Shown: positions 1-34,950 of the stretch, one piece after another
How positions within the stretch are numbered: position 1 is the stretch's first letter
Layout of the letters: each line of letters begins with the position of its first letter
Origin: Actinomycetota bacterium
Lineage (GTDB): Bacteria; Actinomycetota; CADDZG01; WHSQ01
Reading direction: 5' to 3'
NCBI GenBank assembly: GCA_030447315.1
Contig: JAUJPD010000005.1
Coordinates: 95,140-159,139, forward strand
Length of the DNA: 64,000 nucleotides
The notes under the pieces: model-generated
Database searches by the model: none
What the model saw: only the letters and a program-made list of their open reading frames with translations
Told to the model about the DNA's origin: nothing
Program-made: the position numbers and the translations under genes

Positions 1-1716
<1,716 letters not shown>

Positions 1717-1720
<4 letters not shown>

Positions 1721-10018: not shown

Positions 10019-10338
10019 CCAGGACTTACCAGTACGTGGGGGTCCTTCGCTCGCCTGAGTCCCCTTCGAGTACAAGCGACTGGACGGCGGAGGGCTCGGT
10101 TACTGGTGGCCGCTGGTTCGAGTTGCAGGCGGCGACACTGGTGGATGCCCTTCCCGATGGGCGTCCTAGAAGCGGAAGGAGGGCGGGGACCGCGCGCCCA
10201 CTGAGTCTGGCTTAGGTTAGCTGGACGACTTTCGTGACGTCGACCAGGACCGGGGTTCCGACGAGGTCGTGTCTATCTCCAAGACTCGCCTTTCTGTTTG
10301 CATCCCCCAGGCTCAGCCCCTAAGATGCCGCCCGTCAG

Positions 10339-10479
10339 AGCGATGGTGCGAGGAAGCCGGTTAGATGCCGGCGCGGTCGCTTTCACTGTAGCCGGAGGGT
10401 CTCTCCACAATGCCACTGCCGCAGGGCGGGAAGGCGGAGTAGGACGATGCTCCGGGAGCCAGGACATTCGGCCATCGCT
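10339..10479 (+). promoter_or_regulatory. cobalamin (B12) riboswitch aptamer
   Basis: P1 pairing AGCGATGG (10339-10346) with CCATCGCT (10472-10479). Conserved core GGTGCGAGGAAGCCGGTTAGATGCCGGCGCGGTC, GCCACTG..GGGAAGGCGG, and a B12-box-like GAGCCAGGACATTCGGCC. AGGAGG plus ATG at 10518 follow. Confidence 0.8.
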
Positions 10480-10517
10480 ATACCGCCGAACGGGACGCGC
10501 AATCCCCAGGAGGTTTC

Positions 10518-11488: not shown

Positions 11489-11558
11489 CATTGCCCGCCC
11501 ACCCGGGATCCGCCGCCCCGGCCCTCCTCCGATCGGTGGCCGCCCCGGGCGCGCAGCA

Positions 11559-15665: not shown

Positions 15666-16417
15666 ACGGGCGCGTGCTGCTGCTGGGAGGCACCGTCGAG
15701 GCGCGAGAGCTCGCGGCGCTGATGCACGAAGCCGGTATGCCCTTCGTCTCGTCGCTCGCCGGACGGGTTGCGCGGCCGCGACTGCCCGTCGGCGAGGTTC
15801 GGATCGGCGGCTTCGGCGGCCCGCCTGCCCTAGCCGCGTGGCTATCGGAGCATGGGATCGCGGCGGTCGTCGACGCGACCCATCCGTTCGCCGAGCGGAT
15901 CTCCGCCTCGGCGCTGCAGGCGTGCGGGGCCGCCGAGGTGCCGCTGGTGAGACTCGAGCGGCCCGGCTGGACCGAGCGGCCAGGTGACCGGTGGCACTGG
16001 GTCGGCGACCTGGACGAGGCCGCCGAGCTCGTCCCGCAGCTGGGGCACCGGGTGCTACTCACGACCGGGCGCCAGGGCCTCGCCGCGTTCGCCGGGGTAG
16101 ACCGCTGGTTTCTCATTCGCTGTGTCGACCCGCCGAGGCCGCCGCTTCCCGCGCGCCACAAGCTCCTCCTCGACCGAGGCCCATACAGCTTGGCCGGAGA
16201 GCTCGCTCTGTTCGACGAACACCGGATCGACGTGCTCGTCACGAAGGACAGTGGCGGCTCTCACACCCAGGCAAAGCTCGACGCAGCCCGCGAGCGCGGT
16301 ATGCAGGCGATCGTGGTGCGCAGGCCGCCGCGCCTGGACAACGAGACCGTGAACACGCCCGCGGAGGCGCTCGGGTGGATCGCATCGCACCGTTCTGTGG
16401 GAGCGGGCATCGCATGA
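15662..16417 (+). CDS. cobK: precorrin-6A reductase
   Basis: VLLLGGTVEARELA..VVDATHPFAERIS..VLVTKDSGG; overlaps the cobF stop. Confidence 0.85.
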   Translation: MNGRVLLLGGTVEARELAALMHEAGMPFVSSLAGRVARPRLPVGEVRIGGFGGPPALAAWLSEHGIAAVVDATHPFAERISASALQACGAAEVPLVRLERPGWTERPGDRWHWVGDLDEAAELVPQLGHRVLLTTGRQGLAAFAGVDRWFLIRCVDPPRPPLPARHKLLLDRGPYSLAGELALFDEHRIDVLVTKDSGGSHTQAKLDAARERGMQAIVVRRPPRLDNETVNTPAEALGWIASHRSVGAGIA

Positions 16418-17007
16418 GGCGGCTTCTCCTGTTACGGCACGCGAGCACAGCTGCGACGCGCTCGTTCGCCTTTCCCGCCGACGAGTCGCTGGACGAGCGG
16501 GGACGGGCTGCGGCCACGGAACTTCTGGGTCTGTTGCCGGCGAACGGGGAGGTCGTTTCCAGTCCTGCTGCCCGTTGTCTCCAGACCGCGGGGGCCGCCG
16601 GGATCACTCCCGCGCTCGAGCCGGCGCTCCGCGAGTGCGACTTCGGTTCCTGGACGGGTCGGACGCTCGCAGAGCTAAACGCCGCCGAGCCAGATGCCGT
16701 TGCTGCGTGGATGAGCGAGCCAACCGCCCGCGCGCACGGCGGCGAGACGCAGGCAGAGTTTGTCGAACGCGTCGCGCACTGGCTCGATGTTCAGGCGACG
16801 CTCGAAGGCAGGATGCTCGCGATCACGCACGGGGGCGTGGTCAAGGCGGCGCTCGTTCATGCGCTGGGTGCCCCCCTCGAGGCCTTCTGGCGGATCGACG
16901 TAGCGCCGCTCGCACTCACCGAGCTCCATGCCCATGACGGGCGCTGGACGGTGACACGCGTGAACGCGAGCGCGCTCGTGCGCGAGTCGGAGGTGGTGTC
17001 CACATGA
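16414..17007 (+). CDS. cobC: histidine-phosphatase family protein, probable alpha-ribazole phosphatase
   Basis: ATGA overlap with cobK. LLLLRHAST..LDERGRAAA..ITHGGVVKAAL is a phosphoglycerate-mutase-like histidine phosphatase fold. The role is inferred from its position in the cob operon. Confidence 0.68.
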   Translation: MRRLLLLRHASTAATRSFAFPADESLDERGRAAATELLGLLPANGEVVSSPAARCLQTAGAAGITPALEPALRECDFGSWTGRTLAELNAAEPDAVAAWMSEPTARAHGGETQAEFVERVAHWLDVQATLEGRMLAITHGGVVKAALVHALGAPLEAFWRIDVAPLALTELHAHDGRWTVTRVNASALVRESEVVST

Positions 17008-18524: not shown

Positions 18525-21500
18525 CGACCGCGGACACCGAGATCCTGGCGACTGCGGCTGCGGTAGCGCTGCTGCCCGCCGGTTTTCCGGAGGTGCGGTG
18601 CGCTAACCCGAACAGCGCCTCGGACCACGACGTCTTCGTCGAGGATCTGCTCGCCGGCGCGCGCGTCGTCCTCTGCCGCGTCCTCGGCGGGCGTCGCGGC
18701 TGGCCCGATGGCTTCGACCTGCTGCGCAGCCGCTGCCGCGAGCGCGACATCGTGCTGATCGGGCTGGGTGGTGAGGCCGAGCCGGACGCGGAGATGACCA
18801 AGCTCTCGTTGGCCCCGGCAGGCGCGGTTGCGCAGGCGGGCGAGTACCTGCGCCACGGAGACGTCGACAACGTCGAGCAGCTGCTGCGTTTCCTCGCCGA
18901 CACCTTCCTGCTCGAGGGCTACGGCTTCGAGGCTCCGCACGAGGTCCCCGACCTGGGCATCTACCTACCTGGTACAGGCGATGTCCCACTCGAACGCGCG
19001 CTGGAGCGCCACGACGCCGGCCGCCCGACGATCGGCATCTGCTTCTACCGCTCGCACCGGTTGACGGGCAACACGCTGTTCGTGGACGCGCTCTGCACTG
19101 CCGTCGAGCAGGCCGGCGCGAACGCCCTCGCGGTCTGGAGCTACTCCCTGCGCCGGGACTCGAACGGGGACGTGGCCCCGTTCGCGCTGCTCCGGGGCCA
19201 CGTCGACGCGCTTGTGACGACGATGCTGGCAACGGGAGGATCGAGCGCGCGCGACGCGGCAGCCAAGGCGGGCGATGGCGTCGGCGCGGACTGGCAGGAC
19301 TGGGATGCTTCCGCTCTCGCCGCCCTCGACGTACCCGTGATCCAGGCCGTCTGCGCAACCGGGCCGCGGGCCGCCTGGGCGAGCTCGGACACGGGCCTCT
19401 CGCCGCTCGACGTGGCGACACAGGTGGCGATCCCAGAGTTCGACGGTCGCGTCCTCGCGGGCGTGATCTCGTTCAAGGAGCACGATGACGGGAGCTCGCC
19501 GGTCGGAGCCCCGCTCGCGCGCTACGTCCCGGACCCCGAGCGCTGTGCGCGCGTCGCACGTTTCGCCGTCCGAAGTGCGCAGCTGCGTTACACGGCCGCT
19601 AACGAACGCCGACTCGCCGTTTTGCTGACCAGCTTTCCGACCAAGCACGCACGGGTCGGAATGGCGGTAGGGCTGGACACGCCGGCGAGCGCCCTGCGTC
19701 TGCTGGAAGCTCTTCGACAGGATGGGATGCGAGTCGACACCCCGTTCGAGCACGGCGACGAGCTGATGCAGGCGCTGATCGGAACGGGTGGGCACGACCC
19801 GGAGTTCCTCACCGACGAGCAGCTCGCTTCGGCACCGCTGCGATTCCCGGTGGCCAACTATCTGCGCCGGTACGAGAAGTTGCCTGCGGAGCTGCGGGAG
19901 GCGATCGAGGAGCGCTGGGGACCGCCGCCGGGAGATCGCTACCTCGACGGAGACGACTTCGTCGTGGCGGGCCTCGGGCTCGGGAACGTGGTGATAGCGA
20001 TCCAGCCGCCGCGTGGGTACGGCGACGACCCGGTCGGGATCTACCACGACCCAAACCTGCCGCCGACCCACCACTACCTCGCTTGCTACTGGTGGCTAGA
20101 CGAGGTCTGGGGCGCGGACGCGATCGTGCACCTCGGCAAGCACGGCACGCTCGAGTGGCTGCCTGGAAAAATGCTTGCGCTCTCGGCGAGCTGCGCTCCG
20201 GACGCTGCGCTCGGCGACATCCCGCTCTTCTACCCGTTCGTCGTCAACGACCCCGGGGAGGGCGTCCAGGCCAAGCGCCGCGCCCACGCCGTCGTAGTGG
20301 ATCACCTCGTCCCGCCGATGATGCGGGCGGAGACCTACGACGAGCTGGCCGAGCTCGAGTCACTGCTCGACGAGTACGCACGCCTCGAGGCGCTCGACCC
20401 GCCCAAGCTGCCGGCGCTCGCGGCCCGCATCTGGTCGGCGATCGAGCGGGCGAACCTGCAGGCGGATCTGGACATCCAGGAGCGCCCGGAGGACGTCGGC
20501 GCGCTCGTCGCCCACATCGACGGCTATCTCTGCGAGATCAAGGACATCCAGGTGAAGGACGGCCTGCACGTGCTCGGCCAGGCACCCGAGCGAGAGCAGC
20601 TACGCGGTCTCGTCGCCGCCATCCTGCGCCTCGGCTCGGGTGACGTGCCGGGCCTGCGCCGGGCGACCGGTGCTGCGTTCGGGCTGGACGAGCCGGCGCT
20701 CCTGGCGACGCCGGGCGCGCCTTCACCGAGCCGTCCCGAAGAGTTGCTCGATCGTTTCCGCGGTCCGGCGGCGAGTGCGGGCGATCTAATCGACCGGCTC
20801 GAGGCGGCGCAGAGCGCGCTGCTCGAGGAGCTGGAGCGACGGGACTGGCGGGCCGATGCGGCAGGTGCCACCTGCCAGCGGATCCTCGGGCGTCGCGACC
20901 CCGGCGTCGAGAGCGCGCTCCGCTTCGCCGCGGACGAGGTTGTTCCGCGGATCCGCGGCTGCGGGGCAGAGCTCACGAACGTGCTCGCGGCGCTGAACGG
21001 CCGTCATGTGCCTGCAGGCCCTTCCGGCAGCCCGACTCGCGGTCGGCTGGACGTGCTCCCGACAGGCCGCAACTTCTACTCCGTCGACCCGCGCGCCCTT
21101 CCTTCGGAGCTCGCGTGGGAGGTGGGTTGCCGGCTTGCCGAGACCTTGCTCGAGCGCCATCGGGCCCAGACGGGTGAGTTGCCGCGCATGGTAGGTCTCG
21201 TCGCCTGGGGAACGGCCGCGATGCGCACCCACGGCGACGACGTGGCCGAGATCCTCGCCCTTCTCGGCGTGCGTCCCACCTGGAACCGCGAGTCGCGGCG
21301 GGTGACAGGGATCGAGATCGTCCCGTTGGGCGAGCTCGGGCGGCCCCGGATCGACGTCACCGTGCGCATCTCGGGCTTCTTCCGCGACGCCTTCCCGCAC
21401 CTGGTTCGACTGATCGACGATGCGGTGGCGGCTGTCGCCGCGCTGGACGAGCCTGCCGAAAAGAACTTCGTCGCCGCACATGCGCGCGAGGACGCCGAGC

Positions 21501-22273
21501 GACTCGCCATAGAGCTCGACGCCGCCCCTGCCTGGAGACGCGCCACGACGCGCGTCTTCGGCTCGAAGCCAGAGTCCTACGGCGCGGGGCTGCTGCAGCT
21601 TGTCGACGCCCGCGACTGGCGTGACCAGGGCGACATCGCGGCGGTCTACGAGGCGTGGGGCGGCTACGCCTATGGGCGGGGGCTCGACGGTGCCTCGGCC
21701 AGCGAGGCGATGCGCGACTGCTACGGGCGCATCGAGGTGGCCGTCAAGAACGTCGACTCACGCGAGCACGACATCCTCGACTCCGACGACTACTACCAGT
21801 ACCACGGCGGCATGGTCGCGACGGTCAAGGCGCTGACCGGGCGCGAGCCGGCCGCCTATCTCGGCGACAGCTCGGACCCCTCACGTGTAGTTGCCCGCAC
21901 ACTGGCAGAGGAGACACGTCGGGTGTTCCGAGCACGGGTCGCGAATCCACGCTGGATCGCCTCGATGGTGCGTCATGGCTATAAGGGCGCTGCGGAGCTC
22001 TCGGCGACGGTCGACTACCTCTTCGGCTACGACGCGACGACTGGTGTCGCCGAGGACTGGATGTACGAGCAGGTCGCGTCGCGCTACCTGCTCGATCCCG
22101 ATCTCGCGGAGTTCATGTCGCGCTCGAATCCGTGGGCGGCACGGGCGATCGCCGAGCGATTGCTCGAGGCGGCAGAGCGCGGCATGTGGGCCGCACCGGC
22201 CGAATCGGCCCTGGCCCTGATCCGCGAGCGCTACCTGGAGCTCGAGGGCGAGCTCGAGGCGGCAGGCACGTGA
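18509..22273 (+). CDS. cobN: cobaltochelatase large subunit CobN
   Basis: Uninterrupted 1254-aa ORF with CobN/ChlH-like blocks (HLGKHGTLEWLPGK, NDPGEGVQAKRR, LPTGRNFYSVDP). Confidence 0.95.
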   Translation: MLRFVTTADTEILATAAAVALLPAGFPEVRCANPNSASDHDVFVEDLLAGARVVLCRVLGGRRGWPDGFDLLRSRCRERDIVLIGLGGEAEPDAEMTKLSLAPAGAVAQAGEYLRHGDVDNVEQLLRFLADTFLLEGYGFEAPHEVPDLGIYLPGTGDVPLERALERHDAGRPTIGICFYRSHRLTGNTLFVDALCTAVEQAGANALAVWSYSLRRDSNGDVAPFALLRGHVDALVTTMLATGGSSARDAAAKAGDGVGADWQDWDASALAALDVPVIQAVCATGPRAAWASSDTGLSPLDVATQVAIPEFDGRVLAGVISFKEHDDGSSPVGAPLARYVPDPERCARVARFAVRSAQLRYTAANERRLAVLLTSFPTKHARVGMAVGLDTPASALRLLEALRQDGMRVDTPFEHGDELMQALIGTGGHDPEFLTDEQLASAPLRFPVANYLRRYEKLPAELREAIEERWGPPPGDRYLDGDDFVVAGLGLGNVVIAIQPPRGYGDDPVGIYHDPNLPPTHHYLACYWWLDEVWGADAIVHLGKHGTLEWLPGKMLALSASCAPDAALGDIPLFYPFVVNDPGEGVQAKRRAHAVVVDHLVPPMMRAETYDELAELESLLDEYARLEALDPPKLPALAARIWSAIERANLQADLDIQERPEDVGALVAHIDGYLCEIKDIQVKDGLHVLGQAPEREQLRGLVAAILRLGSGDVPGLRRATGAAFGLDEPALLATPGAPSPSRPEELLDRFRGPAASAGDLIDRLEAAQSALLEELERRDWRADAAGATCQRILGRRDPGVESALRFAADEVVPRIRGCGAELTNVLAALNGRHVPAGPSGSPTRGRLDVLPTGRNFYSVDPRALPSELAWEVGCRLAETLLERHRAQTGELPRMVGLVAWGTAAMRTHGDDVAEILALLGVRPTWNRESRRVTGIEIVPLGELGRPRIDVTVRISGFFRDAFPHLVRLIDDAVAAVAALDEPAEKNFVAAHAREDAERLAIELDAAPAWRRATTRVFGSKPESYGAGLLQLVDARDWRDQGDIAAVYEAWGGYAYGRGLDGASASEAMRDCYGRIEVAVKNVDSREHDILDSDDYYQYHGGMVATVKALTGREPAAYLGDSSDPSRVVARTLAEETRRVFRARVANPRWIASMVRHGYKGAAELSATVDYLFGYDATTGVAEDWMYEQVASRYLLDPDLAEFMSRSNPWAARAIAERLLEAAERGMWAAPAESALALIRERYLELEGELEAAGT

Positions 22274-23013
22274 GCGGGCGTGTACACCTCGTCGGAGCCG
22301 GCCCGGGCGCTGCCGACTTGCTGACGCTGCGAGCCGCGGGTTTGCTCGCGGCCGCGGACGTGGTCCTACACGATCGGCTCGTCGGGCCCGATGTCCTTGC
22401 CTTCTGCCGGGCGGATGCGGAGCTGGTCGACGTATCCAAGCGCCCCGGAGCGGAGTCGGCAGCGCAGGAGGAGATCAACCGCGTGCTCATCGAGCGTGCG
22501 CGGGCCGGGCTGGACGTTGTTCGCCTCAAGGGCGGCGACCCGTTCATCTTTGGACGCGGTGGCGAGGAGGCCCGGGCGCTGCAGGCAGCCGGCATACCGT
22601 TCGACGTCGTCCCCGGCCTCAGCTCAGCGCTAGCCGCTCCCGCAGCCGCCGGCGTCTCGCTTACCCACCGTGAGCTGGCGCGCTCGGTCACGATCATCAC
22701 CGGCCACTTGCAGGCGCTCGAGGAGCACGGCTGGGACGCTCTCGCGGCGACGGACACACTCGTCGTTCTGATGGGCGCGGCGACCGTCGGCGAGATGGCG
22801 CAGCGGCTGATGGCCGGCGGCCGGGCCGCCGATACCCCCGCGGTGGTTGTCCAGGAGGCGACCCTGCCGGGCCAGCAGGAAGTGGCCGCGCCGCTGGGGG
22901 AACTCGCGGATGCGGTCGCCGAGGCAGGTCTGCGCGCACCGCTCGTCGTCGTCGTCGGAGCGGTCGCGGCGATCGACCTGTACCGGCCGCTCGCGCTGGA
23001 GACGCGCCGGTGA
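22270..23013 (+). CDS. cobA: uroporphyrinogen-III C-methyltransferase (SUMT)
   Basis: GTGA overlap with cobN. VHLVGAGPGAADLLTLRA..VVRLKGGDPFIFGRGGEE..VVPGLSS. Confidence 0.9.
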   Translation: MSGRVHLVGAGPGAADLLTLRAAGLLAAADVVLHDRLVGPDVLAFCRADAELVDVSKRPGAESAAQEEINRVLIERARAGLDVVRLKGGDPFIFGRGGEEARALQAAGIPFDVVPGLSSALAAPAAAGVSLTHRELARSVTIITGHLQALEEHGWDALAATDTLVVLMGAATVGEMAQRLMAGGRAADTPAVVVQEATLPGQQEVAAPLGELADAVAEAGLRAPLVVVVGAVAAIDLYRPLALETRR

Positions 23014-24911
23014 ACGCCTATCCGCTAAGCGCCGTCGTCGGCCAGTCCGAGCTCGTCGAGGCGTTACTGGTCAATGCGGTCGCGCCGGAGGTCGGCGGTG
23101 TGCTGGTTCGCGGCGAGCGGGGAACGGCGAAGTCGACGGCGGTTCGCGGGTTGGCGCCGCTCTTACCGCCGGTGCTCGCGGCCGCCGATCAACCCTTTGC
23201 GTTCGCGCCCGGTGAGCGCGCTCCGGGTGGAGTCGTCGCGGATGACGCCGAGACGGCGTTGCGACCGGCTGCGCTCGTAGAGCTCCCGCTCGGGGCCACG
23301 CTCGACCGGCTCGTCGGCTCACTCGACTTCGGGCGGGCGCTCGGCGGCGAGCATCGCTTCGAGCCGGGCCTGCTTGCCCGAGCGCATCGCGGGATCCTGT
23401 ACGTGGACGAGGTGAACCTGCTCCCCGACCACCTCGTCGACGCGCTCCTCGACGCGGCCGCTTCGGGGGTCGTTCGTGTCGAGCGCGAGGCGGTCTCCCA
23501 GACCCACGCCGCGCGCTTCCTGCTCGTAGGCACGATGAACGTCGAGGAAGGCGAACTGCGCCCCCAATTGCTCGATCGCTTCGGTCTCGGCGTGGAGGTC
23601 GCGGCCTCGAGCGATCCCAACGAGCGGGCCGAGATCGTGCGCCGTCGCCTGGCCTTCGAAGCTGATCCCAGAGGCTTCATGTCCGAGTGGAGCGCCAAGG
23701 AACAAGAGCTTGCTCGGCGCATCGCCACTGCGCGCGAGCACCTCCCTAGTGTTGACCTGCCCGGTCGCGAGTTGCTGCGGATCACCACCGCCTGTGCCCG
23801 GCTGGGGATCGACGGCGTGCGCGGGGACATCGTTACGGCGCTCGCAGCGCGAGCCTTGGCAGCGTTCGCGGAGGAAGATGCAGTGAGAGAGGAGCACGTT
23901 CGGCGTGCAGCGAAGCTCGCTCTTGCGCACCGCCGCCGGCGCGATCCATTCGGCAACCATGTGGCGGACGCCCAGTCACTCGAGCAGGCGCTCGACGGCC
24001 ACGATCCCGACGACGAGCCTCCATCAGGCCCGAACGGCGATGGCAGAGGGCGAGGATCCGTCCCCTCTTCCGGATCGAGCTCGGAAAGCGAGCCTGCGAG
24101 CGCGGCCACCCCTTCGGGCTTCGAGCCGCAGCCCGATCCGCGACTGCCTGCACGGGAGCGGCAGGACGTTCCGCTCCAAGCGACGCTGCCCTCCAAAGCG
24201 CTCAGCCTGGCAGGGGCAGGACGAGGCCCGACCGGAAGGCGAGCGCGTGCGGCGGGCAGGCAGGCGGGTTCGATCGACAGTCGTCCGGCTCAGGCCTGGA
24301 GCGACGACGTCGCCGTCGTTGCCACACTGCGACACCGCCTGGTGCACGGCGAAGCCGGCGTTCGCGAGCACGTGCGCTCGGGCCGTGAAGGCGTGTTTAT
24401 CTGCCTCGTCGTGGACGCAAGTGGCTCGATGGGGGCGCGGAAGCGGCTTGCGCGGATCAAAGGTGCGCTGCTGGAGCTCTTGCGCGAAGCGTATGCAAGC
24501 CGGGATCGCGTTGCGATCGTGACCTTCCGCGACGGTGGCGCACAACTCTCGGTGCGACCGGGTGCCCCTCTCGGGCGCGCCGCGGAGGCGATCGAGACGC
24601 TGAGCGCCGGCGGGCGAACCCCGCTTGCTGCGGGCCTCGTGGCGGCCGAGCACGTGATTCGCCTCGAGCGTGTACGCCAGCCGGAGCGACGCAGCATCGC
24701 CGTCGTCCTCGCCGACGGCCGAGTCGCCGATGAGCGGGGCGAGATCCGCGAGGCGGCCCGGCGACTCGGCCGCGCGGCAGCCGCGGTGCACGTCATCGAC
24801 GCCGAGGAGGGCCCCGTTCGCCTCGGCCTCGCGGCCTCGCTCGCGGCCGCCTCGCAAGGTCAGGTGCACAGGCTCGTCACGCCCCCCTCGACCCCAAGGA
24901 GAATCGCATGA
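23010..24911 (+). CDS. ChlI/ChlD-like AAA+ plus vWA fusion, probable cobaltochelatase small subunits
   Basis: AAA+ Walker A GERGTAKST; YVDEVNLL; Pro/acidic linker; vWA MIDAS VVDASGSMG. Sits directly after cobN-cobA. Confidence 0.85.
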   Translation: MNAYPLSAVVGQSELVEALLVNAVAPEVGGVLVRGERGTAKSTAVRGLAPLLPPVLAAADQPFAFAPGERAPGGVVADDAETALRPAALVELPLGATLDRLVGSLDFGRALGGEHRFEPGLLARAHRGILYVDEVNLLPDHLVDALLDAAASGVVRVEREAVSQTHAARFLLVGTMNVEEGELRPQLLDRFGLGVEVAASSDPNERAEIVRRRLAFEADPRGFMSEWSAKEQELARRIATAREHLPSVDLPGRELLRITTACARLGIDGVRGDIVTALAARALAAFAEEDAVREEHVRRAAKLALAHRRRRDPFGNHVADAQSLEQALDGHDPDDEPPSGPNGDGRGRGSVPSSGSSSESEPASAATPSGFEPQPDPRLPARERQDVPLQATLPSKALSLAGAGRGPTGRRARAAGRQAGSIDSRPAQAWSDDVAVVATLRHRLVHGEAGVREHVRSGREGVFICLVVDASGSMGARKRLARIKGALLELLREAYASRDRVAIVTFRDGGAQLSVRPGAPLGRAAEAIETLSAGGRTPLAAGLVAAEHVIRLERVRQPERRSIAVVLADGRVADERGEIREAARRLGRAAAAVHVIDAEEGPVRLGLAASLAAASQGQVHRLVTPPSTPRRIA

Positions 24912-25540
24912 CCGAACCGTCCGTGCAGGAGCCGCTCATCCGCCATGGCAACGAAGATGTTGACGTTCCCCACCGGCCGGGAGACGTCGGCAGCGCAGAG
25001 CCAAAGCGGCGCAAGCCTCGGGACCGTCAGCTCGTGATCGTCATCACGGGGCACGGGAAGGGCAAGAGCACCTCGGGCTTCGGGATGCTGATGCGCTCGT
25101 GGGCGCGTGGATACCGCTGCGGAGTGTTCCAGTTCGTCAAGTCGGGCAAGTGGAAGGTGGGCGAGTCCAAGGCGGCGATGGCCCTCGGCGGGATCGACTG
25201 GGAGAAGATGGGCGACGGCTGGTCCTGGCTCTCGCGCGACCTCGAGCAGTCGGAAGACCTCGCCCGCGAAGGGTGGGCGGAGGTGAAGCGGGCGATCGCC
25301 GACGAGCGCTACGAGTTCCTGCTGCTGGACGAGATCACGTACCCCATCAACTGGGGCTGGATCGAACTCGATGACGTGCTTGCGACTCTGCACGATCGGC
25401 CCGGCTTCCAGCACGTCGTGATCACGGGTCGCGACGCTCCCGCCGAGTTGGTCGACGCGGCTGACCTCGTTTCCGAGGTCGTCAACGTCAAGCACCCCAT
25501 GGACGTCGGCATCAGGGCCCAGGAAGGGATCGAATGGTAG
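24908..25540 (+). CDS. cobO: cob(I)yrinic acid a,c-diamide adenosyltransferase
   Basis: ITGHGKGKSTSGFGMLMRSWARGYRCGVFQFVKSGKWKVGE..LLLDEITY, CobO/BtuR type. Confidence 0.9.
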   Translation: MTEPSVQEPLIRHGNEDVDVPHRPGDVGSAEPKRRKPRDRQLVIVITGHGKGKSTSGFGMLMRSWARGYRCGVFQFVKSGKWKVGESKAAMALGGIDWEKMGDGWSWLSRDLEQSEDLAREGWAEVKRAIADERYEFLLLDEITYPINWGWIELDDVLATLHDRPGFQHVVITGRDAPAELVDAADLVSEVVNVKHPMDVGIRAQEGIEW

Positions 25541-26494
25541 CCGTCACGGTGATCCTGGACGGGGCGAGCGAGCCGCTCGGCCCGGCTCCGACCAGCCTCG
25601 AGCGGGCACGCATGCCGGTGCTCGACTCGCTCGCACGGGGGGGTGTGCTGAGCCGCGTCCGCACGGTTCCACTCGGTCTCTCGGCGGGCTCCGAACACGC
25701 CATTCCGACGCTGCTCGGCTGGCCCCCCGCCGCGTCTGTCGACCGCGGCGTGGTGGAGGCGGCGGCACAGGAGCTTTCGCTCGCCGAGGAGGAGTGGGCC
25801 TGGCGTGTCGACGTGCTCGAGCGCGGCAAGCGCGCGGACGAGCCCACGGTCGGGCGGGTCGCTGCCGAGCTGGCCGCTCTCCTCCCCGGACATGCGCTCC
25901 GGCGCCTTGCCGGGCACCGTCTGCTCCTGACCGGCCCGAGGCCGCTCCCGCTGCGGGCGCGCGACGATCTCCGGGTCTGGCCGGAAGGAGCTCTGCCCCC
26001 CCGGGTCCTCGGCGCAGAGACGGTCGTCGTCACGGCACGCGGAGCGGCTGCCGGGATCGCCCGGCTGATGGGCGCCACGGTCGTCGTCCCCGCGGGGGCT
26101 ACCGGCTCGACGGACACGGATCTGCGGTCCAAGGCCGAAGCCGCTCGCCGGGCGCTCGCCGAGGGCGCGGAGAAGGTCGTCGTCCACGTCGGCGCTCCCG
26201 ACGAAGCTGCACCTCACAGAGATGCCCTCGGGCAGCTGCGGGCCCTGGAGGACCTGGACTGTCAGCTGCTTGCGCCCGTTGCCGAGGGCGTCCGAGCCGG
26301 CCGCGGCTGGCTCACGGGCTGCCGCGACCATGGTTGCGACCCACAAACGGGGCTGCACGACGACCTGCCGGTGCCCTGTCTCGTCTGGCGGGCGGAAGGC
26401 GCGCCAACCTGCGGCCTCCAGACGCCTCACCGAGCGCGCGGTCGCGGAGCTCGAGGTCGTCGATCTGGCGCGAGCGCAGGAGAGCGTCGCGTGA
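25534..26494 (+). pseudogene. ApgM-like metalloenzyme-superfamily protein embedded in the cob operon (short paralog of apgM), one frame change near 26400
   Basis: VTVILDGASEP, SAGSEHA, VHVGAPDEAAPHRD and CRDHGCDPQTGLHDDLPVPCLVW align block for block with apgM at 2494. The C-terminus RRLTERAVAELEVVDLARAQESVA lies in the next frame and ends in a GTGA overlap with cobB. Overlaps cobO by 7 nt. Confidence 0.65.
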
Positions 26495-27849
26495 CCGCCC
26501 GCATCGTGGTTGCGGGCACGAGCTCGGGCGCTGGGAAGACGTCTGTCGCCTGCGGCCTGATGGGCGCTCTACGTGAGCGCGGCCTCTGCGTCCAGGGCTT
26601 CAAGGTCGGCCCGGACTACATCGACCCGAGCTACCACACGGTGGCATGCGGGCGACCCGGCCGGAACCTCGATGCCTTCATCGATGGACCCGAGTTGATC
26701 GCGCCGCTCTTCTGCCACGGCTCGGCTGGGGCCGACATCGCGGTGATCGAGGGCGTGATGGGGCTCTTCGACGGCGTCTCTGGCCGGGGCGAGCTCGCCT
26801 CAACGGCACACGTCGCGAAGCTGCTCGATGCTCCCGTACTGCTCGTCGTCGACGCGTCCGCGATGGGACGCTCCGCCGCTGCGATCGTCCACGGCTACCG
26901 CAGCTTCGACCCCGACCTCGAGCTTGCCGGCGTTGTCCTGAACAGGCTCGGCTCCGACCATCACGAGCAACTTCTGCGCGAGGCGATCGAGCCTCTTGGG
27001 GTGCCCGTCTTCGGCGCGCTCCGTCGCGACGGGAGCGTCGTCACACCGGAGCGTCACCTCGGTCTCATCCCCGTCGACGAGCGCGAGCCACAGGCTCGAG
27101 CAACGCTCGAAAGGCTCGCTCGGCTCGTCGCGAGCAGCGTCGATCTCGACGCTGTGGTCGCGCTCGCACAAGGCGCGCGGCCCGTCGACGGTCCGAGTTG
27201 GAGTCCGAAGCCCGAGGAGCCACGGCGCGAGACCCGCGTCGCGCTTGCGGCGGGCCCAGCTTTTTCCTTTCATTACCGCGAGAACCTCGAGCTATTGGCC
27301 GCCGCGGGCGCCGAGCTCCTTCCGTTCGACCCCCTGGCCGACGAGCAGTTGCCCGACGGCGCCGACGCTCTCCTGCTCGCGGGAGGCTTCCCCGAGGTGT
27401 TCGGGCCCGAGCTGGCGGCAAACTCCTTGCTTCGGAGCGAGGTCGCGGCCTTCGCTCGCTCCGGCCGGCCGATCGTGGCCGAGTGCGGCGGGCTGCTGTA
27501 CCTCGCGAGCGAGCTCGACGGACACGAGATGTGTGGCGTCGTTCCTGCGCGAGCGCGCATGACCAAGAGGCTCACACTCGGCTATCGGGAAGCCACGGCG
27601 CTCACCGGCACACCCTGCGTCGAGGCAGGCGAGCAGCTGCGCGGCCACGAGTTCCACTACTCCGAGCTCGAACGTGAGGGCGGCACATGTGCCTGGGCCC
27701 TAAGCGTGCGCGGCGTCAAGCAGGAGGAAGGCTTCGGATCGGCCTCGGTGCACGCGAGCTACCTGCACCTGCACTGGGCGAGCTCGCCGCAGATCGCATG
27801 CAGGCTGCTGGCAACGGCCGAGCGCGCACGGGCGGTGACGGTCGCGTGA
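26491..27849 (+). CDS. cobB: cobyrinic acid a,c-diamide synthase
   Basis: VTARIVVAGTSSGAGKTSVACGLMGAL..GFKVGPDYIDPSYH; C-terminal GATase (AECGGLLYL, HEFHYS). Confidence 0.9.
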   Translation: MTARIVVAGTSSGAGKTSVACGLMGALRERGLCVQGFKVGPDYIDPSYHTVACGRPGRNLDAFIDGPELIAPLFCHGSAGADIAVIEGVMGLFDGVSGRGELASTAHVAKLLDAPVLLVVDASAMGRSAAAIVHGYRSFDPDLELAGVVLNRLGSDHHEQLLREAIEPLGVPVFGALRRDGSVVTPERHLGLIPVDEREPQARATLERLARLVASSVDLDAVVALAQGARPVDGPSWSPKPEEPRRETRVALAAGPAFSFHYRENLELLAAAGAELLPFDPLADEQLPDGADALLLAGGFPEVFGPELAANSLLRSEVAAFARSGRPIVAECGGLLYLASELDGHEMCGVVPARARMTKRLTLGYREATALTGTPCVEAGEQLRGHEFHYSELEREGGTCAWALSVRGVKQEEGFGSASVHASYLHLHWASSPQIACRLLATAERARAVTVA

Positions 27850-29057
27850 GCGCGCCACTGACCGTCGTCGGAATCGGAACCGAGGGCTGGGACAGTCTCA
27901 GTCCCGCGGCGCAGGCAGCCATTCGCGAAGCGACCCTGATCATCGGGTCGGAGCGCCAGTTGGCACTGCTGCCGGAGACGGCCGCGGTGCGACGACCGTG
28001 GCCTTCGCCGATCGACGCCCTGGTAGAGGAGCTCGTCTCCGGCGCTGCCGGGCCCGCCTGCATCCTGGCGAGCGGCGACCCCATGCTGCACGGGATCGGC
28101 GCGACGCTCGCTCGCAGAGTGGCCCGAGAGCGGCTGACTGTGCACCCTCACCTCTCTGCCTTCTCGCTCGCTTGTGCGCGACTGGGCTGGGCTGCTGCGG
28201 ACACTGAGCTCGTGAGCGCGGTCTCGAAGCCGGCTCATGTCGTCGCCCGCTTGCTCCAGCCGGGCCGAACGATGGTGGTTTACGTCACGGGTCCGGCCGG
28301 GGCGAGCGAGGTGGCCGAGATCCTGCACAGCCGCGGCTTCGGTCCCAGTCGCTTCGTCGTCCTCGAGCAGCTCGGCGGCCCGGAGGAGCAGGTGATCGAG
28401 AGCACCGCCGAGGAGTGGGGCACACGATCGGCGCATCCGCTCCACGCAGTCGCTATCGAATGTCGCGCCGCAAGCGGGGCGGCTCTGCTTCCTTGCAGCC
28501 CCGGCTTACCCGACAGTGCCTACGAAACCGACGGCCAACTGACGAAGCAGGAGGTGCGAGCGATCACGATCGCGGCGCTGGCGCCGCTTCCGCGCCAGCT
28601 CCTCTGGGACGTTGGGGCAGGCAGCGGATCGATCGCGATCGAATGGCTTCGCGCCGAGGCAACAGCGCGTGCGGTGGCCGTCGAGGCGCAGCCCGAACGG
28701 GCGGCACGCGTGGCCAGGAACGCCTCGACGCTCGGGGTGCCGCAGCTCGAGGTGCGCTGCGGCGAGGCGCCGGAAGCGCTCGAAGGGCTGGAGCGGCCGG
28801 ATGCCGTCTTCATCGGCGGCGGGCTGGGAGCGGGCGACCTGGTCGCTCACTGCTGGCAGGAGCTCAAGCCGGGAGGCCGCCTTGTGGCCAACGCGGTGAC
28901 GCTCGAGGGGGAGCAGGAGATCGAGGCCGCCCGCGCGACCTATGGCGGCCGGCTCGTTCGCATCGACATCAGCCGCGCAGCGCCTCTTGGCCGATACCAA
29001 GCCTGGCGCACGCAGCTCCCTGTCGTCCAGTGGGCGGCCTCGAAAGAGCCGTCGTGA
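27846..29057 (+). CDS. cobL: precorrin-6Y C5,15-methyltransferase (decarboxylating)
   Basis: GTGA overlap with cobB. LTVVGIGTEGW..ILASGDPMLHGIG, then a SAM-MTase half (LWDVGAGSGSIAIEW). Confidence 0.88.
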   Translation: MSAPLTVVGIGTEGWDSLSPAAQAAIREATLIIGSERQLALLPETAAVRRPWPSPIDALVEELVSGAAGPACILASGDPMLHGIGATLARRVARERLTVHPHLSAFSLACARLGWAAADTELVSAVSKPAHVVARLLQPGRTMVVYVTGPAGASEVAEILHSRGFGPSRFVVLEQLGGPEEQVIESTAEEWGTRSAHPLHAVAIECRAASGAALLPCSPGLPDSAYETDGQLTKQEVRAITIAALAPLPRQLLWDVGAGSGSIAIEWLRAEATARAVAVEAQPERAARVARNASTLGVPQLEVRCGEAPEALEGLERPDAVFIGGGLGAGDLVAHCWQELKPGGRLVANAVTLEGEQEIEAARATYGGRLVRIDISRAAPLGRYQAWRTQLPVVQWAASKEPS

Positions 29058-29800
29058 CCGTCCACTTCATCGGCTCGGGGCCCGGCGCGCCGGACCTGCT
29101 CACGCTCCGGGCACAGCGGCTGATCGCCGAGAGCCCCGTCTGCGTCTATGCAGGCGCGCTCGTTCCCCCCGAGGTGCTCGCCCACGCCCCCGCCGACGCG
29201 CGGCTGATCGACACGCAGCAGCTGAACCTCGACGAGATCGTCGCCGAGCTTCGCGCTGCCTACGAGCGCGGCGAGGACGTGGCCCGGCTTCAGTCCGGAG
29301 ACATCTCGATCTACAGCGCCGCCGCCGAGCAGATGCGCCGCCTGGACGAGCTCGGCATACCTTGGGATGTCACGCCCGGTGTACCGGCCTTCGCCGCCGC
29401 CGCGGCTTCGTTGCGCCAAGAGCTGACCCTGCCCGGCATCGCGCAGACCGTGATCCTGACCCGTCACAGCGCGCGCTCGACCGTGCTGCCGCCGGGGGAG
29501 GAACTCGCGTCGCTCGCGGCCCATCGAACGACGCTCGTCTTGCATCTGGCAGTGCAGGCGATCGACGAGATCGTCGCTGTGCTCGAGCCGGCCTACGGCT
29601 CCGACTGCCCGGCCGCCGTTGTCGCCCGGGCAAGCTGGCCCGACGAGCTCATCATCCGCGGGACGCTCGCGACGATCGCCGCGTCCACGCGCGAGGCCGA
29701 GATCCGCCGCACCGCGTTGATCCTGGTGGGGAAGGCACTCGCAGCACCGGAGTTCTGCGACAGCCACCTCTACTCCAAGGAGCGCGTCCGAACCCCATGA
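29054..29800 (+). CDS. cobM: precorrin-4 C11-methyltransferase
   Basis: GTGA overlap with cobL. VHFIGSGPGAPDLLTLRA..RLQSGDISIYSA..TPGVPAFAAAAA. Confidence 0.9.
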   Translation: MTVHFIGSGPGAPDLLTLRAQRLIAESPVCVYAGALVPPEVLAHAPADARLIDTQQLNLDEIVAELRAAYERGEDVARLQSGDISIYSAAAEQMRRLDELGIPWDVTPGVPAFAAAAASLRQELTLPGIAQTVILTRHSARSTVLPPGEELASLAAHRTTLVLHLAVQAIDEIVAVLEPAYGSDCPAAVVARASWPDELIIRGTLATIAASTREAEIRRTALILVGKALAAPEFCDSHLYSKERVRTP

Positions 29801-31653
29801 CGAGCACGGAGCAGTTCGAGCGACCTGCGCTGCCGCCTGGCTTCGACGACTCGCGCGCACGCGAGCGCAGCCTCGATCTCGCCGGCTGGCGCTTCGACGA
29901 GGCGGAGCGCCTCGGCGTCTGGCGGGCGATCGCCGAGCGGCGGGACATCCGCCGCTTCCGCACCGACCCGCTGCCAGACCAGCTCCTGCGACGGTTGCTC
30001 GAGGCGGCACATCAGGCCCCCTCGGTCGGACTCATGCAGCCCTGGCGCTTCGTCGTCGTTCGCAGCGAGGAGACGAAGGCTGAGATGCAGGGCATCGCAG
30101 CGCGGGAGCGGCTCGTGCAGGCAGACCACTTCGCCGAACGCGCCCGCCACTACCTCGACTTGAAGATCGAGGGCATCCGCGAGGCGCCACTCAGCCTCTG
30201 TGTCTGCTGCGACCGCGGCTCGGACGAGGACGAAGTGCTGGGTCGCCATACGATCAAGGACACCGATCTCTACAGCACCTGCCTCGCGATCCAGAACTTC
30301 TGGTTGGCGGCGCGGGCCGAGGGGGTCGGCGTCGGTTGGGTCTCCTTCTACAAGCCCCAAGAAGTGCGCGCCTTGCTCGGCCTGCCCGACCGTGTCGTGC
30401 CGGTCGCCTGGCTCTGCGTCGGCTATCCCGACGAGCGGCCGAGTCGGCCTGGCCTCGAGGCGGCCGGCTGGGCCCGGCGCCAACCACTGGAGGAAGTCGT
30501 TTTCTCGGAGCGCTGGGGCGAGCCGCTCTCCTCCGAACCTCCAGCTAGCCAGATGGCGTCGAAGATCGTCCGACCGGTCGAGCTCCCCGCTTGGTGGAAG
30601 CAGCTCGCGCAAGCGGTGCGGCCAGGTGAGGGAGCAGCCGCGGTTCGTATCCGGGACGCCTCCGACGAGCTCGTCAAGCCACCGGGCAGTCTGGGGGGGC
30701 TCGAGTCGCTCGTCGAGCGCTGGGCCATGGTCACCGGAGAAGCGCCGCCCCGTACGCCCCGAGCCGGGATCGCCGTGTTCGCGGGCGACCACGGCGTCTG
30801 CGAACGGGGGGTGAGCCTTTATCCCCAGAGCGTCAGCGCCCAGGTTGCTGCCGCTTCCGCGCGCTGCGAGACGGCGATCGGAGTCCTTGCCGACGCGCTC
30901 GACGCGGAACTCGTGGTCGTCGACGTCGGCCTGAAAGGCCCCCGGAACCCGACGCTGCTCGACCACCGCTGCGCCGAGGGAAGCGCAGACATCACGGCCG
31001 GCCCCGCGCTTACGGAAGAGCAGCTCCGCGCGGCGATCGAGGCGGGTCACTCGGTCGCCTCGGAACTCGCCACCCGCTGCGACGTTCTCGTCGTGGGTGA
31101 GATCGGAATCGGGAACACCACCGTCGCAAGCGCCCTCCTTGCCTCGCTCACCGGCCTCTCCGCGGAAAGCGTCTGCGGCCGAGGCACCGGCCTCGACGCT
31201 CAAGGCCTAGCGCGAAAGTGCGCCACTATCGCGGCAGCCCTCGAGGCGAACAGGCCCCGGCGAGGCGACTCACTCGACTGCTTGCGGCGCGTCGGCGGTC
31301 TCGAGTTCGCGGCCCTCGTGGGAGCGCTCATCGGGGCGGCGGCTGCCAGCCGGCCGGTGGTGCTCGACGGCTTCGGAACCGGGGTAGCGGGTCTGGTCGC
31401 AGTTCGCCTGCAGCCTGCCCTTCGCGACTACCTGATCGCCGGCCACCGCTCGTCTGAGCCCGGCCATGGGTTCGTCCTCCGCGAGCTAGGCCTCGAGCCG
31501 CTGCTCGATCTGCGCCTCCGCCTCGGTGAGGCGAGCGGCGCTGCACTTGCGATTCCGCTCGTCGGCCTCGCGGCGCGGCTCCATTCGGACATGCGTCGCT
31601 TCGACGAGGCAGGCGTCGACCGCGCCCGCTCCGGCGGAACTGCGAGCGGCTGA
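29797..31653 (+). CDS. fused 5,6-dimethylbenzimidazole synthase (BluB) / nicotinate-nucleotide-DMB phosphoribosyltransferase (CobT)
   Basis: ATGA overlap with cobM. The N-terminal nitroreductase-like half (RRDIRRFRTDPLP..APSVGLMQPWRFVVV) looks like BluB. The C-terminal half (KPPGSLGGLE..FAGDHGV..GEIGIGNTT..LGEASGAALA) looks like CobT. Confidence 0.85.
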   Translation: MTSTEQFERPALPPGFDDSRARERSLDLAGWRFDEAERLGVWRAIAERRDIRRFRTDPLPDQLLRRLLEAAHQAPSVGLMQPWRFVVVRSEETKAEMQGIAARERLVQADHFAERARHYLDLKIEGIREAPLSLCVCCDRGSDEDEVLGRHTIKDTDLYSTCLAIQNFWLAARAEGVGVGWVSFYKPQEVRALLGLPDRVVPVAWLCVGYPDERPSRPGLEAAGWARRQPLEEVVFSERWGEPLSSEPPASQMASKIVRPVELPAWWKQLAQAVRPGEGAAAVRIRDASDELVKPPGSLGGLESLVERWAMVTGEAPPRTPRAGIAVFAGDHGVCERGVSLYPQSVSAQVAAASARCETAIGVLADALDAELVVVDVGLKGPRNPTLLDHRCAEGSADITAGPALTEEQLRAAIEAGHSVASELATRCDVLVVGEIGIGNTTVASALLASLTGLSAESVCGRGTGLDAQGLARKCATIAAALEANRPRRGDSLDCLRRVGGLEFAALVGALIGAAAASRPVVLDGFGTGVAGLVAVRLQPALRDYLIAGHRSSEPGHGFVLRELGLEPLLDLRLRLGEASGAALAIPLVGLAARLHSDMRRFDEAGVDRARSGGTASG

Positions 31654-32588: not shown

Positions 32589-33589
32589 GCTTGCGCACCC
32601 ATGGCGACACGATGGCGTGCCCGGGCACGCTCGACTTCGCCGTCAATGTCTGGCCGGAGCGTCCACCGATGCTCGAAGCCGCGTTCGTGCAGGCGCTCTC
32701 GCAGAGTCGGGCATACCCAAACGAGTCCCCGGCGCGGGAATCGATCGCAGCCGCACACGGCCGGAGTGTCGATGAGGTGCTGCTGCTAAACGGCGCCTGC
32801 GAGGCGTTTTGGTTGCTCGCCCACGCCTTTCGCCCGAAGCTCGCCGCCTGCATCCACCCGAGCTTCACCGAGCCCGAGGCCGCGTTGCGCGCGGCTGGCG
32901 CCGAGGTCGTCCAGGTCCCCAGAGATCCGGAGCGTTGGAGCTTCGACCCGAGGCATGTTTCCGAGGACGCGGAGATGGTCGTGCTCGGCAACCCCAACAA
33001 TCCGACTGGGAGCCTCGATCGACCGGACCACATCGCATCACTTGCGCGGCAGCGGCGGTTGCTCGTCGTCGACGAGTCCTTTATGGACTTCGTGGTGGAT
33101 GAGGGCGGGACGCTTGCCCGGCGCAGTGAGCTGCCAGGCCTCGTCGTCGTGCGGAGTCTGACGAAGCTCTGGTCGCTCCCCGGCATCCGCGCTGGGTACC
33201 TGCTCGCCCCGCCGGAGGTTGTCGAGGTTTTAGCGGGAAGCCGACAACCCTGGAGCGTGAACGCGCTCGCCTGCGCGGCGCTCGCGGCGTGCGCCGACGA
33301 TGCAGTGACGCCGCGCCGCGTCTCCTTGCAGGTCGCGGAGGCGCGGGCGGAGCTGCTCGAAGGTTTGCGGTGCCTGCCCCAGATACGCGTTTGGCCTTCC
33401 GAAGCCAATTTCATTCTGCTGCAAGCCAGAGATGGTCGGATCCTGTGCGAAGACCTTCGCCGGCTCGGGGTAGCCGTTCGTCCGGCGGCTTCGTTCCCGG
33501 GCCTGGACCACGATTATCTCCGCGTCGCCGTGCGTCCCCGCGAGGACAACCTCGTCCTACTCGAAGCGTTGAGCGCGCTCTGCTCCTGA
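32585..33589 (+). CDS. cobD: threonine-phosphate decarboxylase (class I/II aminotransferase fold)
   Basis: GTGA overlap with cbiB. DFAVNVWPERPP..YPNESP..VVLGNPNNPTG..VVDESFMDF..VRSLTKLWSLPGIRAGY. Confidence 0.8.
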   Translation: MSLRTHGDTMACPGTLDFAVNVWPERPPMLEAAFVQALSQSRAYPNESPARESIAAAHGRSVDEVLLLNGACEAFWLLAHAFRPKLAACIHPSFTEPEAALRAAGAEVVQVPRDPERWSFDPRHVSEDAEMVVLGNPNNPTGSLDRPDHIASLARQRRLLVVDESFMDFVVDEGGTLARRSELPGLVVVRSLTKLWSLPGIRAGYLLAPPEVVEVLAGSRQPWSVNALACAALAACADDAVTPRRVSLQVAEARAELLEGLRCLPQIRVWPSEANFILLQARDGRILCEDLRRLGVAVRPAASFPGLDHDYLRVAVRPREDNLVLLEALSALCS

Positions 33590-34128
33590 TGGCGCTCGTT
33601 CTCCTCCTCGGCGGCGCCCGCAGCGGAAAGTCCGAGCTAGCGGTGCGTCTTGCCAAAGGCCAGAGCGCGCCGGTGGTCTTCGTAGCGACCGCAGAAGCCC
33701 GTGACGACGACATGGCCGAGCGCATCGAGCGCCACCGCGCAGAGCGCCCTGCTGCGTGGCAGACATGCGAGGAGCAGCTTCACCTGATGCAGACGCTTGA
33801 AGGCATCCCCGCAGAGAGCTGCGTCATCCTCGACTGTTTAACGCTTTGGGCTGCGAACGCACTCGAGCGTGTGGGCGCTGACGACGCTGAAGAGCAAGCA
33901 CGGAACGCTGCTCGTGCCGCGGCGCGGCGAAGCGGCCTGACGGTCGTCGTCTCGAACGAGGTCGGGCTCGGCATCGTGCCCGCCAACGGTCTGGCCCGCG
34001 CCTACCGCGACCTCCTTGGCCGCGTGAACACGATCTGGGCCGAAGCAGCCGAGCGGGTCTTTCTCCTCGTTGCCGGGCGAGCGCTTGAGCTCAAGCCCTC
34101 TGCGTCTCTGCTGGAGGAGCAGCCGTAA
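33589..34128 (+). CDS. cobU: adenosylcobinamide kinase / adenosylcobinamide-phosphate guanylyltransferase
   Basis: LLLGGARSGKSELA..FVATAEARDDDMAERIERHRAERP..VVSNEVGLGIVP. Confidence 0.9.
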   Translation: MALVLLLGGARSGKSELAVRLAKGQSAPVVFVATAEARDDDMAERIERHRAERPAAWQTCEEQLHLMQTLEGIPAESCVILDCLTLWAANALERVGADDAEEQARNAARAAARRSGLTVVVSNEVGLGIVPANGLARAYRDLLGRVNTIWAEAAERVFLLVAGRALELKPSASLLEEQP

Positions 34129-34151
34129 ACGGCGCCGCCGAGCTCCGTGCG

Positions 34152-34882: not shown

Positions 34883-34950
34883 GTGTCGTCACTCGGAACT
34901 TCGGCGAGTAAACCCGTGACTATGTGGTGGGGAGTCATTCTCTCTACTCC

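Follow-up and report, generated by a model that had tools for sequence, protein, structure and literature searches.

Gene X, as we call the ApgM-like open reading frame (ORF) between cobO and cobB, lies in a 64,000-nt stretch (the window) of contig JAUJPD010000005.1 from an Actinomycetota bacterium. By profile, residues and fold, its family is a member of the alkaline-phosphatase superfamily with a PF01676 Metalloenzyme core. The family should be a live phosphoryl-transfer enzyme, because its seven metal and nucleophile residues are conserved. Sequence comparison places it with neither the plain phosphoglycerate mutases (PGM) nor HomK, and sets it apart as a distinct reduced-cap lineage, because of a Gly at the position occupied by Lys or Glu in those enzymes, a reduced cap domain and scores below the cutoffs of both models. 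We regard X as the best candidate for the missing enzyme of this cobalamin pathway, the one that forms L-threonine-O-3-phosphate (Thr-P). By analogy with its relatives it would be a phosphotransferase that works through a phospho-Ser intermediate, a reading to which we give a probability of about 0.4.

Against Pfam, X matched PF01676 (Metalloenzyme) with 52.0 bits (cutoff 24.3) and PF10143, the ApgM cap domain, with 28.7 bits. The latter alignment covered only positions 1–63 of the 170 in the profile. Against NCBIfam, TIGR00306 (apgM) gave 132 bits (E = 2e-38, cutoff 320) in two separate stretches, and TIGR02535 ('proposed homoserine kinase', HomK) gave 101.7 bits (cutoff 446). The database homologues numbered 595, with a best E value of 3e-152 and a median length of 318 aa. 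The first-pass annotation, made from the letters of the window alone, had described X as ApgM-like, distinct from the housekeeping ApgM at 2494–3786 and about 110 aa shorter. These matches agreed with all three points, the lengths being 319 and 430 aa.

Conservation was counted over 120 clusters of the family at 90% identity. D9, D223, H227, K234, D265, H266 and H275 were each present in all 120. Ser53, which in the alignment fell in the region of the ApgM catalytic Ser, was present in 119 and was replaced by Thr in one. Seven of these residues, D9, D223, H227, D265, H266, H275 and S53, are those that bind metal or act as nucleophile in the mechanism of ApgM and of the cofactor-independent phosphoglycerate mutases (iPGM). 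From the alignment, the two-metal centre is made up of D9, D265 and H266 together with D223, H227 and H275. The blocks named earlier from the letters (VILDG, GSEHA, HVGAPDEAA-H and DH...H..PVP) turned out to be these metal and nucleophile motifs. On the established iPGM/ApgM mechanism, the enzyme should act through a phospho-Ser intermediate.

The intact homologue P0002 was modeled with AlphaFold2 from a 40-sequence alignment, and the model was confident (mean predicted local distance difference test, pLDDT, 94.7; predicted template-modeling score, pTM, 0.92). The best PDB match by Foldseek was 2ZKT, the ApgM of Pyrococcus horikoshii (E = 1.5e-21, TM 0.79–0.82), followed by other ApgMs, iPGMs, phosphopentomutases and alkaline phosphatases. 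A profile search of PDB sequences also retrieved 2ZKT (E = 2e-30). The structure model proposed earlier as a check was in agreement with the ApgM fold.

Compared with its full-length relatives, X had a substrate-binding cap domain shortened by approximately 100 aa. In the alignment, the deletion took away the cap segments with the DRRAGR/DYSAGH and DPH/PPHD motifs and the greater part of the helical region that follows. The cap residues R71, R91, D93, H128 and R129 were kept and were invariant in the family.

One residue is reported to distinguish HomK, which has Glu there (E299), from phosphoglycerate mutases, which have Lys (10.1101/2024.10.14.618325). We took the corresponding specificity column to be the one three residues before the Asp of the DxxxH motif, mapped by alignment and numbering and not from the sequence of BT2402, the HomK of that study. 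Residue 299 falls in this column in HomK-type proteins whose DxxxH Asp is residue 302. Counting to E299 from the metal-ligand numbers of the preprint was rejected, for D274/H278/H325 and D346/H347 are mutually inconsistent. The BT2402 numbers D346/H347 (10.1101/2024.10.14.618325, Appendix 3) equal the counted numbering of the 2ZKT chain in the profile alignment.

In the 120 clusters this column contained Gly in 106, Ala in 12, Glu in one and Ser in one. The motif around it read HVGAPDE in X, HVEAPDE in proteins of the HomK/PRK04200 type, and HIKGPDV, HVKAPDV or HFKPTDA in ApgMs. The specificity Lys was present in the ApgM of the window, in P0233 and in 2ZKT. DHGCDP with an invariant Cys-Asp (Cys268-Asp269) was likewise specific to the X family, the counterpart in ApgM and HomK being DHSTP or DHPTP. 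The NCBIfam models gave no separation of the full-length relatives, which scored above cutoff with both the HomK and the PRK04200 'PGM' models.

X-family proteins of approximately 318 aa were found in Thermoleophilia (Gaiella, Solirubrobacterales and Thermoleophilaceae), and in many environmental metagenomes. Loci were collected by a scan of genome contigs with a single protein (two loci) and a metagenome scan with an alignment. Gene order was counted in Gaiella occulta, a metagenome-assembled genome (MAG) of Solirubrobacterales, two metagenomic contigs of great length and another 46 metagenome loci, wherever the flanks were sufficient. CobO lay directly upstream of X in 43 of 44 loci by script, the single miss (L024) being a missed alignment piece, and CobB lay directly downstream in 42 of 42. 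The gene overlapped the cobO stop in essentially every locus, including relatives of only 44–46% identity, and the overlap of its own stop with the CobB start was usually 4 nt. Homologues of X were linked to cob genes without exception, which answers the neighborhood check proposed with the first-pass annotation. Together with the overlaps, this bore out the view that X belongs to the cob operon and is translationally coupled within it. Literature searches on Thermoleophilia and cobalamin biosynthesis yielded nothing relevant.

Of the 23 loci with enough room, 21 had a CobD-type gene no more than 4.2 kb downstream of X, usually fused to CobU. In Gaiella occulta (L003) none was found within this distance. 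The CobU::CobD fusion was the gene next to CobB in most Thermoleophilia loci, including L004–L006. In the window, and in a closely related Gaiellaceae MAG locus (L001), CobU and the CobD-type protein were encoded by separate genes elsewhere in the cluster.

The CobO of the window had no exact match in the assembly collection, and the genes of the window were therefore annotated by hand. Its cob genes form a same-strand array from about 10.3 to 35 kb, headed by a cobalamin riboswitch. Their order is CbtB, CbtA, CobG, CobH, CobIJ, a methylase, CobK, a histidine-phosphatase, CobQ, CobN, a methylase, ChlID, CobO, X, CobB, CobL, CobM, a BluB-CobT fusion, CbiB, the CobD-type protein, CobU and CobS. 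A scan for promoters and terminators between 22 and 30 kb gave nothing above shuffled controls, which fits one long operon. The histidine-phosphatase, put forward earlier as a CobC candidate, was confirmed by its PF00300 match. Profile annotation found no GHMP-type kinase within the cob cluster of the window, in line with the earlier remark that it lacked both a threonine kinase of the PduX/BluE type and CobR. As annotated, the cluster holds all the cobalamin steps but the L-threonine kinase and CobR.

This gap is one ground for the proposed function. The chemistry of the fold restricts X to transfers of the phosphoryl type, of which the cobalamin pathway contains only a few. The other phosphoryl-transfer steps were covered in the clusters by the CobU kinase/guanylyltransferase and the CobC-type phosphatase. 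Formation of Thr-P is favored because, CobR aside, every other dedicated step has its gene here. In the proposed reaction, Ser53 would take a phosphoryl group from a donor, without a requirement for ATP, and phospho-Ser53 would pass it to L-threonine. The resulting L-threonine-O-3-phosphate would then be used by the CobD decarboxylase of the same operon. X might in this way be a non-orthologous replacement for both the GHMP kinase PduX and BluE.

PduX of Salmonella and BluE of Rhodobacter are the L-threonine kinases that supply L-threonine-O-3-phosphate to CobD (PMC6249242). HomK (BT2402) complements an Escherichia coli thrB mutant (10.1101/2024.10.14.618325), so the fold is able to phosphorylate a hydroxy-amino acid, homoserine, in vivo. 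Dehre_1608 of Dehalobacter restrictus, named 'CbiU', was proposed in 2015 to make L-threonine phosphate (PMC4285132). The same was speculated for ApgM/HomK homologues adjacent to cobD, namely two Bathyarchaeia genes (GapMind 2026 preprint, 10.1101/2024.10.14.618325). The earlier statement that this fold has no known role in cobalamin synthesis must therefore be narrowed: two independent papers propose the Thr-P role (PMC4285132; 10.1101/2024.10.14.618325), and the statement holds to the extent that these are proposals only. A threonine kinase of the ApgM/HomK type in B12 synthesis is already published as speculation for longer homologues. What is new here is the reduced-cap lineage of Thermoleophilia, its universal placement between CobO and CobB, and its signature of Gly at the Lys/Glu position with DHGCDP.

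Several observations weigh against this role for X. In place of the Glu with which HomK presumably holds the amino group, X has Gly or Ala, and it has lost the two cap motifs that HomK shares with ApgM (DYSAGH/DRRAGR and PPHD/DPH); substrate binding in X therefore cannot follow the manner of HomK. The open active site could favor hydrolysis or a larger substrate. Adjacency to CobO, rather than to CobD, is not specific to the aminopropanol branch. Finally, the copy of X in the window was without two of the invariant residues, as described below.

Related genes outside the main lineage were also found. P0147 and P0168, 44–46% identical to X and on contigs of 78% GC, have a Thr nucleophile and a longer cap, and keep the CobO-X-CobB order. 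A second short ApgM-like lineage is 28% identical to X, also has a Thr nucleophile, and shares DHGCDPxTGxH. Its gene (X2) closes a CbiB-CobD-CobQ operon. As read from its gene content, the CbiB-CobD-CobQ-X2 operon is an adenosylcobinamide-phosphate module lacking only its threonine kinase, a point in favor of the Thr-P role. A check of the longer members of the X family for informative domain fusions gave nothing but insertions of low complexity and chimeric ORFs produced by read-through. P0188 (1244 aa) and P0240 (1065 aa) were such chimeras, composed of ChlID, CobO, X and CobB pieces in mixed frames on frameshifted high-GC cob contigs. Such cases show how often the public gene calls for the cob region are corrupted.

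The copy of X in the window requires separate treatment. Its start codon (ATG, 25534) precedes the cobO stop (TAG, 25538–25540), which gives the 7-nt overlap. As read, frame 1 runs without a stop into CobB, making a single ORF of 771 aa (25534–27849). The homologues P0001–P0004 and P0007 (319–320 aa) matched frame 1 of the window as far as '...LVWRAE' and frame 2 from there on, 'ARQPAASRRLTERAVAELEVVDLARAQESVA*'. A tblastn search with the Gaiella occulta protein (P0007) covered 25534–26394. L001, on a hybrid long-read 'opera' contig, is 90% identical to the window across 16397–34925. The nucleotide alignment of the two located a single surplus base at 26396/26397, where the window reads GGAAGG and L001 reads GGAGG. 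Once this base was taken out, X became 319 codons long, and its TGA (26492–26494) overlapped the CobB GTG (26491) as GTGA. Identity to P0001–P0004 was 72–87%, and 85–87% to P0001 and P0002, each of 319 aa. The extent of X and its overlaps of 7 nt with cobO and 4 nt with cobB had been given correctly by the first-pass annotation, and the frame change it suspected was borne out as this one extra base.

Two further lesions had gone unnoticed. In the motif APDEAAPHRD of the window copy, Pro stands at the metal-ligand His and Gln at the invariant Lys seven residues on. Codon 227 was His in all related loci with a readable motif, the window copy alone having Pro, and this copy therefore has an incomplete two-metal site. 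The earlier statement that the metal and nucleophile residues are in place thus held for the family and not for the window copy (H227P, K234Q). With these changes at invariant residues, and its frame fused to that of CobB, the window copy as read should be catalytically dead.

In the 45 related loci that were checked, X and CobB were always in different frames, which ruled out a genuine X::CobB fusion as a feature of the family. The C-terminal tail removed by the frameshift is naturally missing from part of the family (P0106, for example) and is therefore dispensable. Between the window and L001, the ratio of nonsynonymous to synonymous substitution rates (dN/dS) was 0.28 for X and 0.11–0.18 for the immediate neighbors CobN to CobM. 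The value for X indicated purifying selection and ruled out long-standing pseudogenization.

Frame changes were also seen in other cob genes of the window. Just after the riboswitch (10728–12632), CbtA and CobG each required at least three relative to the Gaiella occulta proteins, and similarity to G. occulta remained high inside each frame segment. This points either to frequent indel errors in the stretch or to genes in decay. CobS (about 34403–34450) carried one frameshift near 34450, and the CobS of L001 one elsewhere, at about 18869; both assemblies appear to carry single-base indel errors in this gene. The large cob genes CobN, CobQ, CobB, CobL and ChlID were unbroken in the window.

Since other cob genes of the window are also frameshifted, the lesions in X are likely to reflect sequence error or recent decay, and H227P, K234Q and the frameshift are most likely a sequence or assembly error. 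The alternative is that they are genuine, the cob cluster of the source genome being in decay and X either a pseudogene or truly fused to CobB. The coincidence of two changes at residues invariant in all 120 clusters with a frameshift, all in one gene, would fit such decay, as would the frame changes needed in CbtA, CobG and CobS. On the other hand, the large cob genes are unbroken, dN/dS of X is 0.28 and not near 1, and no related locus has the fusion. The CbtA and CobG segments stay highly similar to G. occulta, as indel errors would leave them, and the near-identical L001 has a CobS frameshift of its own. We consider a decayed or fused X unlikely, with a chance that is still appreciable.

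The constant coupling of X to cobO raises another alternative, in which X would be a hydrolase or transferase that handles the inorganic triphosphate that CobO forms as a by-product and by which CobO is feedback-inhibited. Enzymes of the CobA/CobO type give off triphosphate and are inhibited by it (PMC10449867), the overlap with the cobO stop persists even at 44–46% identity, and the smaller cap would give an open two-metal site of the phosphatase type. On the other hand, the second short lineage follows CbiB-CobD-CobQ with no adenosyltransferase seen nearby, and general pyrophosphatases are already able to hydrolyse triphosphate. It also counts against this function that we know of no B12-linked triphosphatase with the alkaline-phosphatase fold. 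We judge it improbable.

The same structural features, an alkaline-phosphatase-type core and a truncated cap, suggest hydrolysis or a large substrate, and X is specific to cob operons. It might then be a nucleotide-loop phosphatase acting on adenosylcobalamin-5'-phosphate or alpha-ribazole-5'-phosphate, an analogue of CobC for a bulky corrinoid. However, the window, L001, L002 and Gaiella occulta each already have a canonical CobC-type histidine-phosphatase in the same cluster, and the invariance of R71, R91, D93, H128 and R129 argues for a specific small ligand. The chance of this is low.

Triphosphate could also enter as the donor for threonine phosphorylation, with X taking a phosphate from the triphosphate released by CobO onto Ser53 and transferring it to L-threonine. 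This would account for X being locked to cobO. If true, one small ATP-independent enzyme would lift the inhibition of adenosylation by its product and at the same time supply the aminopropanol-phosphate branch. We hold this very unlikely.

That X is a second cofactor-independent phosphoglycerate mutase is scarcely credible: the automatic JGI annotation labels many members 2,3-bisphosphoglycerate-independent phosphoglycerate mutase and ApgM is the top structural match, but the TIGR00306 score is far under cutoff, about 100 aa of the cap are gone, Gly replaces the PGM Lys, the gene is confined to cob operons in the examined loci, and a full-length ApgM is already present in the window. The doubt left by the first-pass annotation, that X might be a plain PGM, is removed by the first three of these points. 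The ApgM of the window (2494–3786) is 430 aa long, scores above the apgM cutoff and has a PGM-type Lys (HIKGPD). It directly follows the gene for triose-phosphate isomerase, the pair spanning 1672–3786. Its best NCBIfam match was the PhpG phosphonoformyl-transferase model (411 bits, under the cutoff of 545).

Members of the X family are publicly labeled 'hypothetical protein', 'Metalloenzyme-type protein' (Gaiella occulta, WP_114797130.1 / RDI73591.1) or, automatically, 'phosphoglycerate mutase'. The last label is applied wrongly and is a systematic mis-annotation. To our knowledge, formation of L-threonine phosphate is the step of cobalamin biosynthesis with the poorest coverage, PduX and BluE are known from few lineages only, and many predicted B12 producers are gapped at this step, a view that PMC4285132 and the GapMind preprint partly support. 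If X does form Thr-P by an ATP-independent phospho-Ser route, this would close a hole in the pathway and correct the mis-annotation, and a compact enzyme would be gained for engineered B12 production. The reduced cap makes X a minimal form of the ApgM/HomK scaffold.

Two other regions of the window are recorded here. BluB, the nitroreductase-fold dimethylbenzimidazole synthase, and CobT (DBI_PRT) occupy one unbroken frame at 29800–31653, an apparent BluB::CobT fusion, and the two matches share one frame in L001 too. About 3 kb upstream of the riboswitch lies a tRNA gene (7196–7279), and coding signal is weak between 7.2 and 10.3 kb (third-codon-position G+C about 0.62–0.66).

Table 1. Features of gene X, its surroundings and related loci. 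Positions are those of the window unless a locus is named.
Feature	Position	Strand	Remarks
Gene X, first 287 codons, frame 1	25534..26396	+	short ApgM/HomK-like metalloenzyme core; PF01676 and PF10143
Extra base, +1 frame change	26396..26397	+	window/L001 nucleotide alignment, three-frame translation
Gene X, C-terminal tail, frame 2, ARQPAASRRLTERAVAELEVVDLARAQESVA	26397..26494	+	matches the tails of P0001-P0004 and L001
Asp9 codon, metal ligand (VILDG)	25558..25560	+	invariant, 120/120 clusters
Ser53 codon, predicted phospho-enzyme nucleophile (AGSEHA)	25690..25692	+	Ser 119/120, Thr 1/120
Codon 227, CCT (Pro)	26212..26214	+	metal-ligand His of DxxxH in 120/120 clusters; CAT in L001
Codon 234, CAG (Gln)	26233..26235	+	Lys in 120/120 clusters and in a wider ApgM/HomK sample; AAG in L001
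cobO, corrinoid adenosyltransferase	24908..25540	+	directly upstream of X, 7-nt overlap
cobB, hydrogenobyrinic/cobyrinic acid a,c-diamide synthase	26491..27849	+	directly downstream of X; NCBIfam PRK01077, 524 bits
Cobalamin riboswitch	10327..10490	+	Rfam RF00174, 68.7 bits; heads the same-strand cob array, ~10.3-35 kb
Histidine-phosphatase, CobC-type	16414..17007	+	PF00300, 131 bits; also in L001, L002, L003
CobD-type class I/II aminotransferase-fold protein, candidate L-threonine-O-3-phosphate decarboxylase	32600..33589	+	PF00155
Diverged relatives, 352-356 aa, Thr nucleophile	L055 280-1350; L056 1156-2214		between CobO and CobB; GPHQ cap motif kept
Second short ApgM-like lineage, 307-325 aa	L047 53-1030; L048 4865-5842; L053 1262-2185		metagenome contigs, 55-57% GC

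Among known systems, ApgM (2ZKT, TIGR00306 and the housekeeping copy of the window) is like X in its fold, its two-metal centre, its Ser nucleophile, the equivalent of Lys234, and the DxxxH and DH...H motifs. X differs from it in being about 100 aa shorter, with a cap that lacks DRRAGR and DPH, in having Gly for Lys and DHGCDP for DHSTP, and in its context, a cob operon and not glycolysis.

HomK (ThrB2; BT2402, TIGR02535) belongs to the same branch of the superfamily and handles a hydroxy-amino acid through phospho-Ser. It is the mechanistic model for the threonine phosphorylation proposed for X. In contrast to HomK, X is without the specificity Glu and the DYSAGH and PPHD cap motifs, and its neighbors in all loci are cob genes, not hom or thrC.

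CobC, of the histidine-phosphatase family, is like X a phosphoryl-transfer enzyme of cob clusters. Its fold is unrelated, and a CobC-type gene is already there in the window.

Closer to X are 'CbiU' (Dehre_1608) and the Bathyarchaeia genes FWH37_03765 and G4O51_00460, which are ApgM/HomK-like and stand in cobalamin clusters of hosts without pduX. By the descriptions in the papers, they resemble TIGR02535 or TIGR00306, and both archaeal proteins keep the Glu. On these descriptions, X is set apart by its reduced cap, the Gly at the Glu position and its fixed site between CobO and CobB.

PduX and BluE have the metabolic role that is proposed for X. PduX is an ATP-dependent GHMP kinase, with a fold unrelated to the alkaline-phosphatase type. 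X has the alkaline-phosphatase fold and gave no GHMP match in Pfam, and its likeness to these kinases would be one of analogy, not homology.

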